Source: a virus (taxonomy: Duplodnaviria; Heunggongvirae; Uroviricota; Caudoviricetes). Taken from it: a stretch of 7,311 nucleotides of DNA. Under the pieces are notes generated by a model. That model did not search any database and was not told the origin of the DNA. It saw only the letters and a list, made by a program, of their open reading frames with translations. Of the stretch, positions 1,492 through 6,317 are shown one piece after another. The DNA lies in the IMG/VR virus record IMGVR_UViG_2541047433_000022. One strand, written 5' to 3'. Every line of letters starts with the position of its first letter. Within the stretch, counting starts at the first letter, position 1. A program made the position numbers and the translations under genes.

Positions 1492-1910
1492 TTCTCAATC
1501 TCTCGATGGCGCAGTGCAGCAGATGCCAGTTGTTCAAGCTAGCACGCAAATTGTAAACCAGAATGCCAGGAAAAAACAAAACCCGCCGAAGCTGGTTGTG
1601 TGCGGTTGCGTTGAAGTCTCCTAGCCAAAGAGTAGCGGTGACCACTCCCCGCCGATAATCTTAGTTGTTTAATTTCGTAAGCTAACTAGGCTAAAAGCTC
1701 TCTGTTGTCTGCCTGTTGTACAATTAACAAAATGAACAACGAACTAGATATACCAACGCCAGAATGGTGCAACAAATCCCAAACAACACAGCAATGCAAC
1801 AATAACATATGTTATTTTCCTCTCACGGGATTCAGTCCTGAATTCTCATAAAGCTAATCTTTTTTTAAAAACATACTGTTAGATCACATGCACTTTCTTT
1901 CTTAACATCG

Positions 1911-1938
1911 TTGACTTCGCATGCGAAGCGTTTAAAAT
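1911..1938 (+). promoter_or_regulatory. Sigma70-type promoter for the ATPase operon: -35 TTGACT (1911-1916), 16-nt spacer, -10 TAAAAT (1933-1938)
   Basis: Hexamers read directly from the sequence. The predicted start site near 1945 leaves a ~45-nt leader before AGAGAG (1979-1984) and the ATG at 1991. Confidence 0.45.
1915..1928. promoter_or_regulatory. Perfect 14-bp palindrome CTTCGCATGCGAAG overlapping the -35 and filling the spacer; candidate operator
   Basis: The sequence is identical to its reverse complement. Its position inside the promoter is the classic place for a repressor site. No regulator gene was identified in the window. Confidence 0.45.
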
Positions 1939-1990
1939 CAACAATTTGCACTTAAGGTATTTATTTTCCCAAACACATAGAGAGTAAATT

Positions 1991-3382
1991 ATGACTGAGA
2001 ACACGACTCCAACAGCAGACTTTAGTCCTAGTAAAAGATTTTTTGTAAGTATGCTAACTCGAGATATCGACTTAAACGATGCCATACTTGATCTGCTTGA
2101 TAACTGCGTCGATGGGGCTTTACGTACAATAAAAGACACAAAAAAAACTTCAAAACCATATGAAGGATTTTATGCGAAACTTACGATTAATAAAGATGTC
2201 TTTATTATAGAAGACAATTGCGGAGGTATCCCTAAAAGCTTCCGAGAATATGCTTTTAAAATGGGACGACCCCATCAAAAAGAAGAAGAAAATGAAGGCA
2301 CCGTTGGCGTCTATGGTATTGGTATGAAAAGAGCCATTTTTAAAATGGGTAGAGATTGCTCAATACAATCGAATAATCCCGATGGCGCATTCACTGTAGA
2401 TATAACACCTGATTGGATCGATGGTGATGGTTGGAAAATACCGATGCACGAGAGTGACTATGATAACAAAAATCCAACAGGCACAACTATAGAGATAAAA
2501 AAACTCCATTCTAATGTGGCACAAAAATTTAATGAGAGCACATATCTTACTGATCTCTTTTTACAGATAAAACACTCATTGTCATTTATTATTCAAAAAG
2601 GATTTAAAATAGAATTAAATGGAGTTGTTGTTGAACATAATCCGATTAACATCATAACTGATCATTCTAAAATAGAACCATACATATATAAAGCTAAAAT
2701 AGACGATGTTGATATCGATTTAGTTGTTGGCTTCTATAAAAATTTAGAAGATGACAATGATGATGTTTTAGAAAAAAGGAGTTCTGATGATGCTGGATGG
2801 ACTGTCATTTGCAATGACCGCGTTGTTCTATATTGTGATAAGACACATCTCACAGGTTGGGGCTTTGCTAATGTACCAAGGTTTCATACCCAATTTATAG
2901 CAATTTCTGGGGTTGTTCGCTTTACCAGTAAAAACCCAGAAAAATTACCAATAACAACAACGAAACGAGGTGTCGATCTTAGTTCTACATTGTACAATGA
3001 TGTACGAAATAAAATGATTGAAGGGATGATGCATTTTATTCGATTCACCAATCAGTGGAAAGGTGAGCATCTTGAAGAAGGGAAAAAATTACTTAAGTCA
3101 GCTCAGTCACATGAAGCTCAATCTTTATTTGAAATTACCCCACAATCAACTCCAGAAGATAAAAAAAATAACTGGTCCAACCCTAATAGAAACAAAAATG
3201 AGTGGCGATATACACCTAAGCTGCCTACCCCAGTAAAAAAAAGCTCTACTGTACGAATAATCTTCACCAGAGAGAAAGAAGATGTTAAAATTTTATCTAA
3301 ATATTTCTTTGGACATGAAGATGCTAGCGCTTCTGATGTGGGGATGCAATGCTTTGATACGGTGATTGAAGAGGTGAAGTGA
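1991..3382 (+). CDS. GHKL (Bergerat-fold) ATPase, MutL/MORC-like (HATPase_c_3-type) N-terminal domain with an unassigned C-terminal half, 463 aa
   Basis: Three motifs in canonical order: N-box ILDLLDNCVDGA (aa 33-43, nt 2087-2119), G1 box IEDNCGGIP (aa 73-81, nt 2207-2233; compare MutL DNGCGI) and G2 box GVYGIGMKRAIF (aa 106-117, nt 2306-2341). No membrane segment or histidine-kinase dimerisation region precedes the ATPase domain. The C-terminus is Lys/Asn-rich. Confidence 0.8.
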   Translation: MTENTTPTADFSPSKRFFVSMLTRDIDLNDAILDLLDNCVDGALRTIKDTKKTSKPYEGFYAKLTINKDVFIIEDNCGGIPKSFREYAFKMGRPHQKEEENEGTVGVYGIGMKRAIFKMGRDCSIQSNNPDGAFTVDITPDWIDGDGWKIPMHESDYDNKNPTGTTIEIKKLHSNVAQKFNESTYLTDLFLQIKHSLSFIIQKGFKIELNGVVVEHNPINIITDHSKIEPYIYKAKIDDVDIDLVVGFYKNLEDDNDDVLEKRSSDDAGWTVICNDRVVLYCDKTHLTGWGFANVPRFHTQFIAISGVVRFTSKNPEKLPITTTKRGVDLSSTLYNDVRNKMIEGMMHFIRFTNQWKGEHLEEGKKLLKSAQSHEAQSLFEITPQSTPEDKKNNWSNPNRNKNEWRYTPKLPTPVKKSSTVRIIFTREKEDVKILSKYFFGHEDASASDVGMQCFDTVIEEVK

Positions 3383-4371
3383 TGTCTGGACAATACATTC
3401 CCTATCACTTAAGGCATAATAAGTCTATTGATAGAGAGATTTTTCTCGAAAGCCTAAACCTCTTAAGCAAAAGACTAAATATTCAAGAATATACATATAT
3501 AGGTTTTGGTGGTCCGATGCTTGAAGATTTTAGAATCATGCATAATCGTATCGCTCTTTCTGATATGATTTCTCTCGAAGAACAAGAGTCTACTCACATC
3601 AGACAAAAATATAATTTGCCTTATAATTGTATTGATTGTAAGCTAATATCAGCTCATGACTTTATTCTTGATTATAGTTTTTCTAAACCATCAATAACAT
3701 GGTTAGACTATGCCTCCCCGAAAAAAATACAAACGGATCTAGATGATATACACTTACTAAGTACTAAAGTAAGCTCTTTTGATATTTTGAAGGTCACCTT
3801 CCCCATAAATCCTAGTTCTTATTACCAACGTAGAGTTGGAGAAAGTTTAGATATTTTTAAAGAAGCTTTTATTAATTCATTAAAATCATTGCTTGGGAAA
3901 AAGTATCTTGATTTTAATCTTCAGATATCAAATGCAGATCTTTCAGATCGTAAGATTAAAGCTCTTTTAATACGAATTATTACAAACGCTTTTAGATCAG
4001 CAATAGAACGTGGTCTTTCAGGACGTAAGGATAAGATTCAGTATTACCCATTATCCTTAAATCAATATAATGATGGCAGTCATACCATGTTGACAATATC
4101 AGGTTTTTTCTCCTCAGAACAAGAATATATAGAGTTATCTAAGGCATGCGACCTTTCTAACTGGCAATTTTATTCAACAAATTGGGAAGACGTGCAAGAA
4201 ATAGCAATACCAACACTAACAATTAAAGAAAAGATAAATTTAGATAGTAAACTGCCTGATAAAGAAGCATATCAGGCAGCCGCTGAAGAGTTCTCTTTAA
4301 ACGAAAATGAACGGGATAACTATTATAAATACTATAGGTTATACCCTAACTTCCAAAGAATTATGGTTTAA
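3382..4371 (+). CDS. Hypothetical protein, 329 aa, operon partner of the GHKL ATPase; function unknown (candidate effector)
   Basis: The ORF track starts at GTG 3379, but ATG 3382-3384 overlaps the ATPase stop (TGATG, 3380-3384), so the two genes are translationally coupled. Same ~30% G+C as the ATPase gene. I found no clear PD-(D/E)xK, HNH, HEPN or Walker motif by eye. Confidence 0.7.
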   Translation: MSGQYIPYHLRHNKSIDREIFLESLNLLSKRLNIQEYTYIGFGGPMLEDFRIMHNRIALSDMISLEEQESTHIRQKYNLPYNCIDCKLISAHDFILDYSFSKPSITWLDYASPKKIQTDLDDIHLLSTKVSSFDILKVTFPINPSSYYQRRVGESLDIFKEAFINSLKSLLGKKYLDFNLQISNADLSDRKIKALLIRIITNAFRSAIERGLSGRKDKIQYYPLSLNQYNDGSHTMLTISGFFSSEQEYIELSKACDLSNWQFYSTNWEDVQEIAIPTLTIKEKINLDSKLPDKEAYQAAAEEFSLNENERDNYYKYYRLYPNFQRIMV

Positions 4372-5490
4372 ATATTCGGGCTGTACTCTTTTATTTAATA
4401 AATTGTACAGCCCCTTTAATATATATTCAGCAACTATTGGTGACACGCTATTTCCTATTTGTCTGAAACTATGCCATTTAGTTACATGAAAGCGAAACCA
4501 ATCAGGGAAGCCTTGTAATCTAGCAGCTTCTCTTGGTGTAATCACTCTTGGATGATAAGGGTGGATCGGCCTGACGGCTTGAAAGCTTCCTTTATCTCTA
4601 GCGGTTCCCGCCCTTAAAGTCGGGCAAAAACCATTTGGATCTAATCTTGTAGATCTTGAAATTTTATCAGTTTCCCCAAAAGATAAGGAAGCATAACGCT
4701 CTTGGACGATTTTGCTATGTAATGTTCCGGTACATCCAGATATGATATTATTTTTTAACTTAGCGATCGATTCTGTATCACCAACATTCCGAGGGATCTG
4801 CCCCCATAATTTTTCATAAAATCCCCCTTTTCGATCTTTTTTAATTGTTCGCCAACTCTCAGAGTCTGATTGCCAATTGGCATCGATAATATCTGGTAAT
4901 CCATACAAAGCATCTTTTACAGTAACCGGATCAATCATTTTAGGCATAAATACTTCATCTGAAATATCAAGCTTCAATGATTTTTTTACACCGATAAAAA
5001 AATATCTAGTTCGAATAGTTGGAGCACCATAATCAGATGCTTTTACCTTGATGGGATCAAGAATATCATAATCACCGCTAACCAAATTAAATGCTTTATT
5101 TCTAATGCCAGAATATTTCTCTTGCATAATACCTGGAACATTTTCTGCCAAAAAGAATAATGGCTGTAATTCTGATACTAAACGGTAGAAATGCATGTAA
5201 AGCTGATTCCTGCTATCATCAGGATTCCCCTTGCCTATTGAACTAAATCCTTGGCACGGAGGACCGCCAATAATACCATCTATGGGCATATCGTTTTTAA
5301 AAAAACCCTTAATTATTTCTGCATTTAGTAAAGAAACATCTTCTTGGACGTGCAAACTTCTTGGAAAATTAATTGCGTGAGTATTAATAGCATGTTGATC
5401 AATTTCAACTGCCATTTTAACATCAAATCCAGCACGTGCAGCACCAAGACTTAGACCTCCAACGCCAGAAAACAAATCTATTACATTCAT
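4339..5490 (-). CDS. DNA (cytosine-5)-methyltransferase, 383 aa
   Basis: Canonical motifs in order: I DLFSGVGG (aa 5-12, nt 5455-5478), IV GGPPCQGFS (PCQ = aa 78-80, nt 5251-5259), VI FLAENVPG (ENV = aa 116-118) and X QIGNSVSP near the C-terminus. A variable target-recognition region lies between VIII and IX. The 3' end overlaps the partner gene by 33 bp (4339-4371). Confidence 0.9.
   Translation of the reverse strand: MNVIDLFSGVGGLSLGAARAGFDVKMAVEIDQHAINTHAINFPRSLHVQEDVSLLNAEIIKGFFKNDMPIDGIIGGPPCQGFSSIGKGNPDDSRNQLYMHFYRLVSELQPLFFLAENVPGIMQEKYSGIRNKAFNLVSGDYDILDPIKVKASDYGAPTIRTRYFFIGVKKSLKLDISDEVFMPKMIDPVTVKDALYGLPDIIDANWQSDSESWRTIKKDRKGGFYEKLWGQIPRNVGDTESIAKLKNNIISGCTGTLHSKIVQERYASLSFGETDKISRSTRLDPNGFCPTLRAGTARDKGSFQAVRPIHPYHPRVITPREAARLQGFPDWFRFHVTKWHSFRQIGNSVSPIVAEYILKGLYNLLNKRVQPEYLNHNSLEVRV
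4378..4413 (+). terminator. Hairpin (9-bp stem GGGCTGTAC / GTACAGCCC, 18-nt AT-rich loop) followed by CTTTAATATATATT; possible terminator of the plus-strand operon
   Basis: Inverted repeat read directly, 7 nt after the partner stop codon. It lies inside the last codons of the convergent MTase gene. The long loop and interrupted T-tract make it a weak terminator candidate. Confidence 0.3.
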
Positions 5491-5522
5491 ATAGTTGCAA
5501 CGTCTCTTATTAGTTTCTATGT

Positions 5523-5531
5523 ATTATAACA
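5523..5531 (-). promoter_or_regulatory. Extended -10 promoter element (TGT-TATAAT on the minus strand) upstream of the MTase gene
   Basis: Revcomp of 5523-5528 is TATAAT and is preceded by TGT (5529-5531). It sits ~32 nt upstream of the MTase ATG (5488-5490), with AAGAGA as a weak ribosome-binding site. No good -35 is present, which is consistent with an extended -10 promoter. Confidence 0.35.
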
Positions 5532-5742
5532 CAACTGTTCTTGATGTTTTAACCCCATAAGATAACCTCATAAAGGCTATCCCTTGAAAATACCGGATCG
5601 CATAAATTTAATCTTTCAAAACTACTTGTCTATTAATCGAGCAATTTAAGGTTGTTTTAGTCATGTCGATACCGACATAGTTAACTAAACCCATTTCATC
5701 GTCCAACAAATGGGGGTAATACACTTTGATTTATAGTCGGGT

Positions 5743-5778
5743 GGGTTTTTCTCTATCTGCCTTTGGTGTTCATGCCCA
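5743..5778. repeat. Perfect 11-bp inverted repeat CTATCTGCCTT / AAGGCAGATAG with a 14-nt loop at the right border of the low-GC insert
   Basis: Read directly from the sequence. It is not followed by a U-tract on either strand, so it is not a typical intrinsic terminator. Function unknown. Confidence 0.5.
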
Positions 5779-5921
5779 AGGCAGATAGCCTCAAGCACCC
5801 GCAGCAATTCTACTTAACTCTCCTTTTCCCGCAAACCGTTTTTATCTCCAGCGACAAATCGAATACACAACCAGCACCACCGCCATTACTGTTCCTACAT
5901 TTGCGAATGCTTCAGGCCAGG

Positions 5922-6317
5922 TCATTGATTCACCTTCTGCTCAATATTTTTAAGGTCATTTTCCGCATACAGTATTGCAGTTCTTGCTGCCCGCAACCGT
6001 GCTTTGGTGTTCTTTTCTTCACGCTCGAGGCTGGCAACAGATTCTCGGAGCTGATCGTGTCTGTTATGAAGCTGTCTAATCTCTCTCACCACAGCCTCAC
6101 CATCGTTCGCACACCGCAGAACATACTGAAAAGGGTCCACAACACATCCGCACTGCAAGCACAGGATAACGTGATCCTGTTCATGAACCTCAATGGCCCG
6201 ATGCTTACAGCTCTGTTGTGTGTAGTTTTTTCTGCCAGTTACTGTAATGTTCAGCAGCTTCTCTTCATCGCGCTTTGGCTGCACCAGTGTGATGATATTA
6301 TCGCCTTCATTTTCCAT
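5922..6317 (-). CDS. Hypothetical phage protein, 131 aa, with a Cys cluster (possible zinc ribbon) and C-terminal coiled-coil-like region
   Basis: Listed ORF 5922..6392 trimmed to the ATG at 6315-6317, which overlaps the upstream stop (TGATG) and follows a perfect AGGAGGT (revcomp of 6324-6330). Cys pattern: SCKH...ILCLQCGC...LRCAND. Confidence 0.6.
   Translation of the reverse strand: MENEGDNIITLVQPKRDEEKLLNITVTGRKNYTQQSCKHRAIEVHEQDHVILCLQCGCVVDPFQYVLRCANDGEAVVREIRQLHNRHDQLRESVASLEREEKNTKARLRAARTAILYAENDLKNIEQKVNQ

Follow-up and report, generated by a model that had tools for sequence, protein, structure and literature searches.

Overlapping 3' ends and two embedded hairpins at the convergent junction of a mobile GHKL/PF20553/dcm gene set

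In a stretch of 7,311 nucleotides from a virus of the Caudoviricetes (IMG/VR record IMGVR_UViG_2541047433_000022; the whole stretch is referred to as the window), a DNA methyltransferase gene and a facing partner gene overlap at their 3' ends, and a hairpin is embedded in the last methyltransferase codons. In a preliminary description this arrangement was attributed to a restriction-modification system, the two arms of which might be balanced by antisense control. This raises the question of which genes meet at the junction, and whether their overlap sets the ratio of their products or marks the place where two transcripts end.

Proteins and genomic setting of the module

The island, its genes, and the promoter-like sites upstream of them are located as follows:

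1650 to 5750, no strand: low-GC (~33%) three-gene island, from the composition profile, with flanks of ~49% GC
1911 to 1938, + strand: promoter-like site TTGACT-16-TAAAAT, 10/12 in the consensus scan (weak evidence), 5' of the GHKL gene, from which the + strand operon may be transcribed
1991 to 3382, + strand: GHKL ATPase with S5-like transducer domain, 463 aa, MORC/paraMORC-like (PF13589, E = 2.9e-9)
3382 to 4371, + strand: partner CDS, PF20553 (Methyltransf_35) 'O-methyltransferase', 329 aa
4339 to 5490, - strand: C5 DNA cytosine methyltransferase, dcm-type, 383 aa (PF00145, TIGR00675, PADLOC MTase_II)
5523 to 5552, - strand: promoter-like site TTAAAA-18-TATAAT with upstream TG, 10/12 in the consensus scan (weak evidence), upstream of the dcm ATG

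The GHKL protein comprises a GHKL domain followed by an S5-fold transducer domain (Foldseek and PF13589). Approximately 400 of the 463 residues of its AF2 model (pLDDT 82.7) align to the Hsp90 N and M domains, the ParE ATPase, and the SMCHD1 ATPase module in Foldseek; a PDB sequence search with this protein gave no match. Its gene is situated directly 5' of the PF20553 gene at every locus examined, and in the window its stop codon and the partner ATG have one base in common (TGATG). For the partner, the ORF list gives 3379 to 4371 (330 aa) and RefSeq/PGAP a start at 3382 in identical copies. The partner matches PF20553 with E = 2e-89 and 300.4 bits (gathering cutoff 27), its residues 2-329 corresponding to profile positions 1-308 of 309, and its AF2 model (pLDDT 88.5) adopts a class I Rossmann SAM-methyltransferase fold with distant matches only (TM 0.3-0.45). 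The PF20553 family contains 1187 representatives of 50%-identity clusters (E <= 1e-10). The dcm product is a DNA methyltransferase whose catalytic motifs are conserved, according to PF00145 (E = 2.6e-61 over residues 1-361), TIGR00675 (156.9 bits, cutoff 100.65), and PADLOC MTase_II (E = 2e-98).

The partner had been taken for the restriction arm of the system. Due to the PF20553 match, the Rossmann methyltransferase fold, the GHKL+S5 neighbour, and the absence of any nuclease family match in Pfam, NCBIfam, and PADLOC, its identification as a restriction endonuclease was rejected. Nuclease domains were found in none of the three proteins (Pfam, NCBIfam, PADLOC, and fold comparison), and domain and fold searches of the module revealed neither a superfamily II helicase nor an endonuclease. 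[quoted passage not shown] The three-gene set is not included in PADLOC-DB v2, and literature searches found no paper on it. The label of the locus is corrected here from a classical R-M pair to a widespread, uncharacterised set of a GHKL+S5 ATPase, a PF20553 protein, and a C5 methyltransferase. Some variants of this module carry an additional second, longer GHKL protein.

According to the annotated context in E. coli SD134209, the island occupies the nin region of a lambdoid/Rac-like prophage. Of 5426 complete E. coli genomes, 173 contain the island at >=99% identity, and prophages of Shiga-toxigenic E. coli are among the carriers of the GHKL/PF20553/dcm set. Related junctions with the 33-bp overlap occur in varied contexts, i.e., the nin region, downstream of Q, and chromosomal islands. 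In the prophage copies, dcm points in the same direction as the flanking phage operons, and GHKL-PF20553 runs against them. A megablast search of the phage collection gave no match, no tRNA gene was found in a tRNA gene search, and Rfam placed no family at the junction, its sole notable match lying elsewhere. The consensus scan for promoters yielded 19 promoter-like matches, including - strand matches within the partner gene (e.g., 4096-4050), which is no excess over the shuffle expectation of 17.1 ± 3.8.

The overlap and its two hairpins

Four features were assigned at the junction:

4250 to 4281, - strand: HP2, stem-loop with a 10-12 bp stem and an 8-nt loop, putative 3'-end structure of the dcm transcript (folding, covariation)
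4339 to 4371, no strand: 33-bp overlap of the two 3' ends, the partner (+) ending at 4371 and dcm (-) at 4339
4342 to 4395, - strand: C-terminal extension of dcm, ~18 codons (residues 366-383), from tail length comparison
4378 to 4413, + strand: HP1, stem-loop that may terminate the GHKL-PF20553 transcript intrinsically or protect its 3' end (folding, covariation)

The opposite-strand overlap described previously was recovered with the same ends in the ORF list and, for identical copies, in the RefSeq/PGAP annotation. Its length of 33 bp is unchanged in all 14 distinct homologous junctions, with partner identities of 54-100%, and dcm stops at a TAA that reads, on the other strand, as a Leu codon of the conserved partner tail YRLYPNFQRIMV. 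By clade, the overlap lengths are -18, -33, -40, -47, and -50 bp. The dcm extension crosses the loop and the 3' arm of HP1, enters the partner gene, and is missing from most dcm homologues. Following motif X (GNSV), the dcm tail comprises 38-39 aa in the clade, compared to a minimum of 20-21 aa and, for co-directional loci, a median of 23.5 aa; it exceeds that of homologues elsewhere by about 18 aa.

The 9-bp-stem hairpin noted earlier inside the methyltransferase frame is likewise present. Its arms GGGCTGTAC (4378-4386) and GTACAGCCC (4405-4413) form nine of nine Watson-Crick pairs, six of them G-C, plus three inner pairs, and enclose a loop of 18 nt, or of 8 nt with an internal loop. HP1 begins 7 nt past the partner TAA (4369-4371) and spans dcm codons G360-P371, i.e., a stable stem-loop is situated close to the stop as in a terminator. 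On the + strand it folds with a dG of -17.2 kcal/mol (z = -4.1), and none of 200 dinucleotide shuffles reaches this stability. When the + strand folds of the 4-kb low-GC island are ranked by stability in sliding 44-nt segments (mean -4.4, sd 2.9), HP1 and HP2 occupy the top two places.

Across the 14 distinct junctions, HP1 is paired in 89.8% of cells on the + strand versus 79.1% on the - strand. Compensatory change was observed at 11 of 14 pairs, with up to five pair types at a single position. Overall, pairing amounts to 84% versus 24-43% in slid controls, and the observed values are matched by none of 500 shuffles. In the homologues, HP1 contains 22 G·U pairs and 20 mismatches when read on the + strand, and 1 G·U pair and 41 mismatched cells on the - strand; its stability favours the + strand in 13 of 14 sequences, by a mean ddG of -4.1 kcal/mol. 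Due to the conserved overlap, the compensatory changes, and the + biased G·U pairs, HP1 is assigned to the transcript of the partner operon as an RNA structure. The alignments indicate that HP1 is not due to chance and that selection maintains it as a + strand RNA structure, with compensatory pairs kept on one strand; the strand bias of HP2 is weaker.

HP2 mirrors this arrangement 59 nt past the dcm stop, within partner codons K290-A300 of a variable linker. It is a stable stem-loop as well (dG -18.7 on the - strand, z = -3.3), is paired in 85.7% of cells on the - strand versus 78.0% on the + strand, and shows compensatory change at 5 of 12 pairs. It is stabler on the - strand in 9 of 14 sequences. 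Because its core of 10 bp pairs equally on both strands, the strand of HP2 is uncertain, and its assignment is weaker than that of HP1.

Both hairpins depart from the textbook form of an intrinsic terminator, their U tracts being short and the loop of HP1 long, and neither was called by the consensus terminator scan. HP1 is followed by CUUUAAUA with 4 U in 8 nt; most homologues have 4-5, except for loci L066 and L116 with only 1-2. Two to four U in 8 nt are present 3' of HP2. By our reading, HP2 escaped the scan due to a G·U extension of its stem, which consumes the first U residues.

Gene order and hairpins at related loci

In most of 62 genome-contig loci a dcm homologue is situated within 6 kb of the GHKL-PF20553 genes, on either side and in either orientation, so that linkage of a GHKL+S5 gene to a DNA methylase gene is conserved. 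Co-directional GHKL/PF20553/dcm operons were found at no less than 24 distinct loci (i.e., at least 24) from many phyla, and other lineages possess convergent pairs with spacers between dcm and partner. Due to the variable and often co-directional position of dcm, convergence is not essential to the three-gene set, and since co-directional operons and spaced convergent pairs both exist, convergent antisense control cannot be intrinsic to the system. Loci L002, L004, L005, and L034 harbour GHKL-PF20553 without a dcm gene within 6 kb; these loci do not support a strict dependence on dcm and would be compatible with an unlinked methyltransferase.

Hairpins at the position of HP1 also occur between non-overlapping genes. 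In L073, AAAAGCTCTCA-actg-AGAGCTTTT forms an intergenic hairpin in a 28-bp gap, and in L072 an intergenic 12-bp stem is located in a gap of 58 bp. In a neighbour-joining tree without support values, L073 is sister to the whole clade. The clades with overlaps of -40 and -50 bp contain an embedded hairpin of their own past the partner stop, with compensatory synonymous changes; for these two clades RNAalifold gave no consensus structure 3' of the dcm stop, and individual sequences fold strongly there.

For the 70 nt past the partner stop, the median z is -3.6 at 30 overlapping junctions, whereas no hairpin was found past the PF20553 stop (median z ~0) in 28 loci without a downstream dcm gene, namely 24 co-directional or divergent loci and 4 in which no dcm gene was found, a contrast with taxonomy as a confounder, given that most overlapping loci are from Enterobacterales. 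Since these 28 loci lack the hairpin, HP1 is not a generic feature of the PF20553 gene.

Readings of the junction and comparison with known systems

The best explanation, to which we assign a probability of about 0.6, is a 3' junction of convergent units with interlocked transcript-end hairpins, in which the dcm ORF has been extended through a former terminator. Both units are part of a mobile three-gene module with the GHKL+S5 ATPase and PF20553 genes on the + strand and dcm on the - strand. In the enterobacterial clade, the dcm ORF would have grown by ~18 codons through a once-intergenic terminator, the present HP1, and would thereby have reached the last 10 partner codons, where the complement of the conserved Leu codon serves as its stop. 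Termination of the GHKL-PF20553 mRNA and/or protection of its 3' end is the most likely role of HP1, and HP2 most likely has the same role for the dcm mRNA; both this termination or stabilisation function and the origin by dcm extension are what we infer. The interlocked hairpins would restrict mutual read-through as well as transcription running into the flanking phage operons, and mRNAs ending at HP1 and HP2 would retain complementary 3' ends of ~165 nt. As far as can be judged from sequence, the junction appears to be a compact variant of ordinary transcript-end signals.

The expectation that the two transcripts collide or read into each other agrees with the geometry of the locus: each mRNA must reach its own stop inside the opposite gene, consequently the transcripts are complementary over at least 33 nt, and polymerases on a single template must meet. 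Read-through, however, would be limited by HP1 and HP2. It is unlikely, in our opinion, that the convergent overlap is a regulatory device in which polymerase collision and/or 3'-end pairing sets the ratio of GHKL-PF20553 to methyltransferase, and antisense control of expression via the junction is possible but unsupported by the sequences compared. Such a device would be served by the unavoidable complementarity (probably ~165 nt), and overlaps recur with different lengths in several clades, the one of exactly 33 bp being kept down to 54% partner identity. Furthermore, the effector arm is opposed to the phage operons in prophages, and due to the co-orientation of dcm with these operons, antiterminated phage transcription would be antisense to GHKL-PF20553. 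In bacteria, RNase III is documented to digest transcripts that overlap (PMC7154746). In E. coli, 3'-end overlaps account for a very small part (0.5%) of the detected dsRNA regions (as cited in PMC7154746). The co-directional operons and the spaced convergent pairs also speak against a device of this kind, conserved strand-specific hairpins past each stop favour stopping transcription over prolonging it, and the conserved partner tail with its Leu codon complementary to the stop explains the retention of the overlap. In addition, domain and fold comparison provide no evidence that the partner is a restriction enzyme. Quite improbable is a role of the interlocked 3' ends as a switch in the phage life cycle, serving a new immunity module that would be linked to methylation and have no nuclease. 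If true, HP1 and HP2 would insulate both units in the lysogen; upon induction, antiterminated phage transcription, which would have the same direction as dcm in all prophage copies examined, would pass HP2, dcm expression would rise and progeny DNA would be methylated, and a full-length antisense RNA would silence the GHKL-PF20553 effector arm.

The remaining readings concern HP1 itself. An action on the dcm mRNA, e.g., by ribosome pausing or message stabilisation near its 3' end, is very unlikely. HP1 is indeed located within the dcm reading frame, and in the window its perfect Watson-Crick stem is slightly stabler on the - strand (-17.6 vs -17.2), but among the homologues the - strand is the one rich in mismatches and weaker in all but one of the 14 sequences, and in the non-overlapping relatives the hairpin keeps its position but falls outside the dcm ORF. 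As an inverted repeat with 9 perfect bp that adjoins the gene of a DNA-modifying enzyme, HP1 might also be a DNA element, e.g., a palindrome bound by a protein, a site of recombination, or the target of a methyltransferase. This possibility was rejected as highly improbable, since conservation extends to the pairing but not to the sequence of the arms (the window has GGGCTGTAC/GTACAGCCC, L112 has AAAAGTTGCGCG/CGCGCAACTTTT), and the strong asymmetry between the strands in G·U versus C·A is meaningless for duplex DNA. Practically no weight is left for HP1 as a functionless by-product of coding constraints or of chance in an AT-rich region. Both arms consist of in-frame dcm codons (GLY ... VQP), and the first lies within the last conserved helix of dcm; this explanation was nevertheless rejected due to the folding z-score, the covariation, neither of which was equalled by shuffled sequences, and the position of the second arm in the non-conserved extension.

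Regarding its proteins, the module resembles the RM-like operons of MORC/paraMORC proteins, in which the genes of a DNA cytosine methylase and a GHKL+S5 ATPase are likewise linked (Iyer, Abhiman & Aravind 2008, PMC2292703). Both are sporadic across phyla and occur on mobile elements. MORC/paraMORC neighbourhoods typically hold a superfamily II helicase and/or an endonuclease (PMC2292703), whereas the module described here lacks both nuclease and helicase and has a methyltransferase-like Rossmann protein of PF20553 instead. Antisense regulation of the EcoRI type (PMC3141266, PMC3874152) similarly involves a methyltransferase gene in a mobile conflict-type module, and in both cases expression could be tuned by transcription from the opposite direction. 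For EcoRI, dedicated reverse promoters within the co-directional R and M genes give rise to antisense RNAs (PMC3141266, PMC3874152), unlike the window, where the reverse promoters in the consensus scan do not exceed the chance expectation, it is the two mRNAs that oppose each other, and the partner is no demonstrated endonuclease.

Bidirectional or paired intrinsic terminators, overlapping 3' UTRs, and 'excludon' layouts (PMC7154746) likewise have a GC-rich stem-loop past both facing stops, and 3'-overlapping transcripts are common to them and the junction. At the HP1 position, L073, which is closely related, carries an ordinary bidirectional terminator within its 28-bp spacer. In contrast, the junction of the window has no spacer but two separate strand-biased hairpins, each inside the opposite CDS and kept by covariation against coding constraints. 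The covariation evidence suggests that functional transcript-end structures can persist inside the CDS of an opposite, overlapping gene. Terminator predictors restricted to intergenic regions would miss such embedded elements, as did the consensus scan used here. If the junction regulates both arms, it would serve as a compact model of how antisense 3' ends can couple the arms of a defence-type module.

Phage 'morons' are autonomous promoter-gene-terminator cassettes inserted in prophage operons. The island shares with them the low-GC insertion between phage genes, promoter-like sites of its own, and 3' hairpins. Unlike morons, it consists of two facing units with one interlocked 3' end, and the cassette occurs outside prophages as well.

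Hairpins at the convergent junction

The features of the island are as follows.
1991-3382, plus strand: gene of an ATP-binding GHKL-domain protein (PF13589, domain match)
3382-4371, plus strand: partner gene, "O-methyltransferase" PF20553/Methyltransf_35 (E = 2e-89)
4339-5490, minus strand: dcm, C5 DNA cytosine methyltransferase gene (PF00145, E = 2.6e-61)
4378-4413: hairpin HP1, after the partner stop, within dcm
4250-4281: hairpin HP2, after the dcm stop, within the partner gene

Both gene ends and the resulting 33-bp overlap (4339-4371) agree with the preliminary description, as does HP1, whose arms GGGCTGTAC (4378-4386) and GTACAGCCC (4405-4413) are perfectly complementary. HP1 starts 7 nt past the partner stop, covers dcm codons G360-P371 and has a dG of -17.2 kcal/mol (z = -4.1), with 0 of 200 shuffles folding equally well. 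HP2, which was absent from that description, pairs CTGCCTGATA (4252-4261) with TATCAGGCAG (4270-4279) around a loop of 8 nt (dG -18.7, z = -3.3) and is located 59 nt beyond the dcm stop, within partner codons K290-A300; on the minus strand, two G·U pairs lengthen its stem to 4250-4281. In a sliding-window scan, HP1 and HP2 are the two most stable plus strand folds of the island. Besides these, two more strong local structures occur inside coding sequence, namely GGTTTTTGCCCG...CGGGAACC within dcm (4589-4632, minus strand, dG -18.6) and a 20-nt imperfect inverted repeat with 80% complementarity inside the PF20553 gene (3913-3960).

Both hairpins were evaluated in an alignment of 14 junctions and a mirror alignment. 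Overall, 84% of the cells pair, vs 24-43% with partners slid by 1-3 columns, and the observed pairing or covariation was reached by 0 of 500 shuffles.

Pairing of HP1 and HP2 in 14 junctions (plus strand vs minus strand)
Cells paired: HP1, 89.8% vs 79.1%; HP2, 78.0% vs 85.7%
G·U cells: HP1, 22 vs 1; HP2, 8 vs 21
Mismatched cells: HP1, 20 vs 41; HP2, 37 vs 24
Pairs changed on both sides: HP1, 11/14; HP2, 5/12
More stable strand: HP1, plus in 13/14 junctions (mean difference 4.1 kcal/mol); HP2, minus in 9/14 (mean difference 3.2 kcal/mol)

A single position of HP1 can show as many as five pair types, and the arms of HP1 may differ completely among homologues, e.g., AAAAGTTGCGCG/CGCGCAACTTTT in the homologous locus L112. 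Such a pattern in the alignment marks HP1 as an RNA structure under selection on the plus strand transcript. A by-product of coding is excluded by the pairing being kept with varied pair types and arm sequences, and a DNA palindrome by arms that differ fully between homologues while pairing persists. For HP2, compensatory change is exemplified by CTGCC/GGCAG to CTTCC/GGAAG. Its strand assignment is less secure, since in the core of 10 bp the strands tie in G·U cells (8 on plus, 10 on minus).

Overlap, dcm extension and gene order in related loci

An exact 33-bp convergent overlap was observed in every relative with a partner identity of 58-90%, plus one at 54%, and is kept in several settings (the nin region, a site immediately downstream of Q, and chromosomal islands); these relatives supplied the 14 junctions, all distinct, of the alignment. 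Strong conservation of the partner tail YRLYPNFQRIMV extends to non-overlapping relatives. The reverse reading of this tail constitutes the last ten residues of dcm, and the complement of a Leu codon (TTA/CTA) within it provides the dcm stop. Past motif X (GNSV), the dcm tail comprises 38-39 aa in the clade of the window, vs a minimum of 20-21 aa elsewhere and a median of 23.5 aa in co-directional loci, and therefore dcm carries an extension of approximately 18 codons in this clade, which spans the HP1 loop, the HP1 3' arm and the overlap. In L073 and L072, two homologous loci without overlap, the spacer contains a hairpin as far from the partner stop as HP1 is: in L073 a bidirectional terminator of textbook form (AAAAGCTCTCA-actg-AGAGCTTTT; gap of 28 bp), and in L072 a 12-bp stem adjoining an intact dcm (gap of 58 bp). 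In a neighbour-joining tree of the partner protein (no support values), L073 branches as sister to all others, with the 33-bp state on both sub-branches. The simplest history suggested by these sequences is that extension of the dcm ORF swallowed an intergenic terminator.

Other overlapping clades possess their own embedded hairpin downstream of the partner stop. In the clades with overlaps of 40 and 50 bp (partner about 34%, dcm about 64% identical), the hairpin is made from dcm motif-X codons and exhibits compensatory synonymous changes. In detail, in L011, L016, L019, L020, L083, L084, L101, L103, L104, and L107 it is conserved and lies about 26-70 nt past the PF20553 stop; the motif-X sequence GGTAACAGC, encoding G-N-S, pairs with downstream Leu-Leu-Pro codons (GCTGTTACC), with paired synonymous changes from AAC/CTG to AAT/CTA. 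Strong hairpins past the dcm stop occur in individual sequences of these clades and do not align. For 30 overlapping convergent junctions, median z was -3.6 in the 70 nt past the partner stop and -2.6 in the 100 nt past the dcm stop, vs -1.2 and -0.2 for 10 convergent junctions with a short gap, and about 0 past the partner stop for 28 junctions with dcm not downstream (co-directional, divergent or absent). Hairpins accompany facing, overlapping genes, a contrast confounded by taxonomy, since the overlapping loci are mostly from Enterobacterales.

The PF20553 family comprises 1187 representatives of 50%-identity clusters (E <= 1e-10). In 62 of 62 loci, drawn from one-genome-per-species contigs, a GHKL gene is situated directly upstream of the PF20553 gene. 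A dcm homologue is mostly present, in varying position.

Position of dcm relative to the GHKL-PF20553 pair
Upstream, co-directional: at least 24 distinct loci (Latescibacterota, Poribacteria, Verrucomicrobiota, Planctomycetes, one Methanoregulaceae archaeon)
Downstream, co-directional: 7 loci
Upstream, divergent: 1 locus
Downstream, convergent: layout of the window
Not found within 6 kb: a few loci

In L002, L004, and L005 (cyanobacteria) and in L034, the 6 kb to each side of the pair contain no dcm homologue; therefore the pair can exist without a linked cytosine methyltransferase. Judging from these loci, the convergent layout is one option of several and, since position and orientation of dcm differ, cannot be intrinsic to the working of the system. 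In a four-gene variant (L071, L114, L115, also L010, L013, L014, L018, L027, and L057), the gene after dcm encodes an additional, longer GHKL protein (PF13589, ~608 aa); in the close relatives L071, L114, and L115, dcm and this gene face GHKL-PF20553 over a gap of ~220-290 bp.

Proteins and prophage setting of the module

The sequence TGATG (3380-3384), where the stop codon of the GHKL gene and the start codon of the PF20553 gene have one base in common, suggests translational coupling of both genes. According to a confident model (pLDDT 88.5), the partner adopts a class I Rossmann SAM-methyltransferase fold with only distant structural relatives, e.g., BamL and Trm1 (TM 0.3-0.45). About 400 residues of the GHKL protein model (pLDDT 82.7) align to Hsp90 N+M domains, the ParE ATPase and the SMCHD1 ATPase module; the predicted structure is that of a GHKL+S5 module of MutL/MORC-type proteins. 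Both proteins are listed in PHROGs as families of unknown function. Searches with Pfam, NCBIfam and PADLOC and comparison of folds revealed neither a nuclease nor a helicase domain in the three proteins; the label "restriction enzyme" is therefore unsupported for the partner. Literature searches returned no published description of this three-gene set, an uncharacterised module that may merit study by itself.

The window belongs to the nin region of a lambdoid/Rac-like E. coli prophage. Among 5426 complete E. coli genomes, 173 carry its central 3.9 kb (identity >=99%), in all cases on the chromosome, and a sequence search of the deposited phage collection did not find it. The region ~1650-5750 is regarded as an inserted island because of its G+C content (~33% vs ~49% in the flanks). 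In strain SD134209, it is flanked by phage replication genes and by DUF1367/DUF1364/DUF1133 (ninB-, ybcO-, and Q-like) genes, the dcm unit pointing toward the Q-like gene. In every prophage copy examined (L001, L064, L070, L072, L112, L113, and L116), dcm has the orientation of the flanking phage operons and GHKL-PF20553 the opposite one, irrespective of the site occupied by the module (nin region, or the interval from Q to the lysis genes). At the island boundary on the dcm-promoter side, a match to Rfam RF01794 'sok antitoxin (CssrC)' (5676-5800, minus strand; 50.2 bits, under the gathering score of 59; E = 3.6e-9) overlies the hairpin that is strongest in the window (5753-5766/5775-5788; dG about -20). 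A 27-aa hydrophobic ORF is situated nearby (5842-5925, minus strand), and the region may represent a hok/sok-like type I toxin-antitoxin remnant.

Possible roles of the hairpins and the overlap

In the most economical reading, HP1 would end and/or protect the GHKL-PF20553 mRNA and HP2 the dcm mRNA, each being tolerated where the opposite protein is poorly constrained, HP1 in the dcm extension and HP2 in a variable linker of the partner. The hairpins would thereby keep either unit from transcribing far into the other or into adjacent phage operons. Due to the short U tracts (CUUUAAUA after HP1; 2-4 U in 8 after HP2), the long HP1 loop and a consensus terminator scan that called neither hairpin, they may be weak terminators or 3'-end protecting stems that act once transcription has been terminated in some other way. 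Were the transcripts to end at the hairpins, both mRNAs would still be complementary over ~165 nt (4250-4413).

The preliminary description had proposed that collision or mutual read-through of the transcripts from the two arms gives scope for antisense control of the ratio of restriction to modification. Entry of the convergent transcripts into each other's gene is indeed unavoidable, but a regulatory role was not supported by any test run. Precedents are well established for 3'-end overlap between convergent genes, for antisense transcription by read-through and for RNase III processing (PMC7154746), as well as for antisense regulation of R-M systems via reverse promoters (PMC3141266, PMC3874152). 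In favour of this less probable reading, overlaps recur at several lengths (18 to 50 bp), and antiterminated phage transcription in the prophage copies would be antisense to the effector arm (GHKL-PF20553), because of the opposed orientations, although the insertion contexts are too few for significance. Against this role stand the variable gene order, hairpins that resemble terminators and are strand-specific, and a module without a recognisable restriction enzyme. GHKL ATPases linked to cytosine methylases are known from RM-like neighbourhoods (Iyer et al., PMC2292703), which, in contrast to the module described here, have helicases or endonucleases. Compared to known convergent 3'-end overlaps, the occurrence of two separate strand-biased hairpins, interlocked so that each is located inside the coding sequence of the other gene and both kept by compensatory evolution, is unusual.
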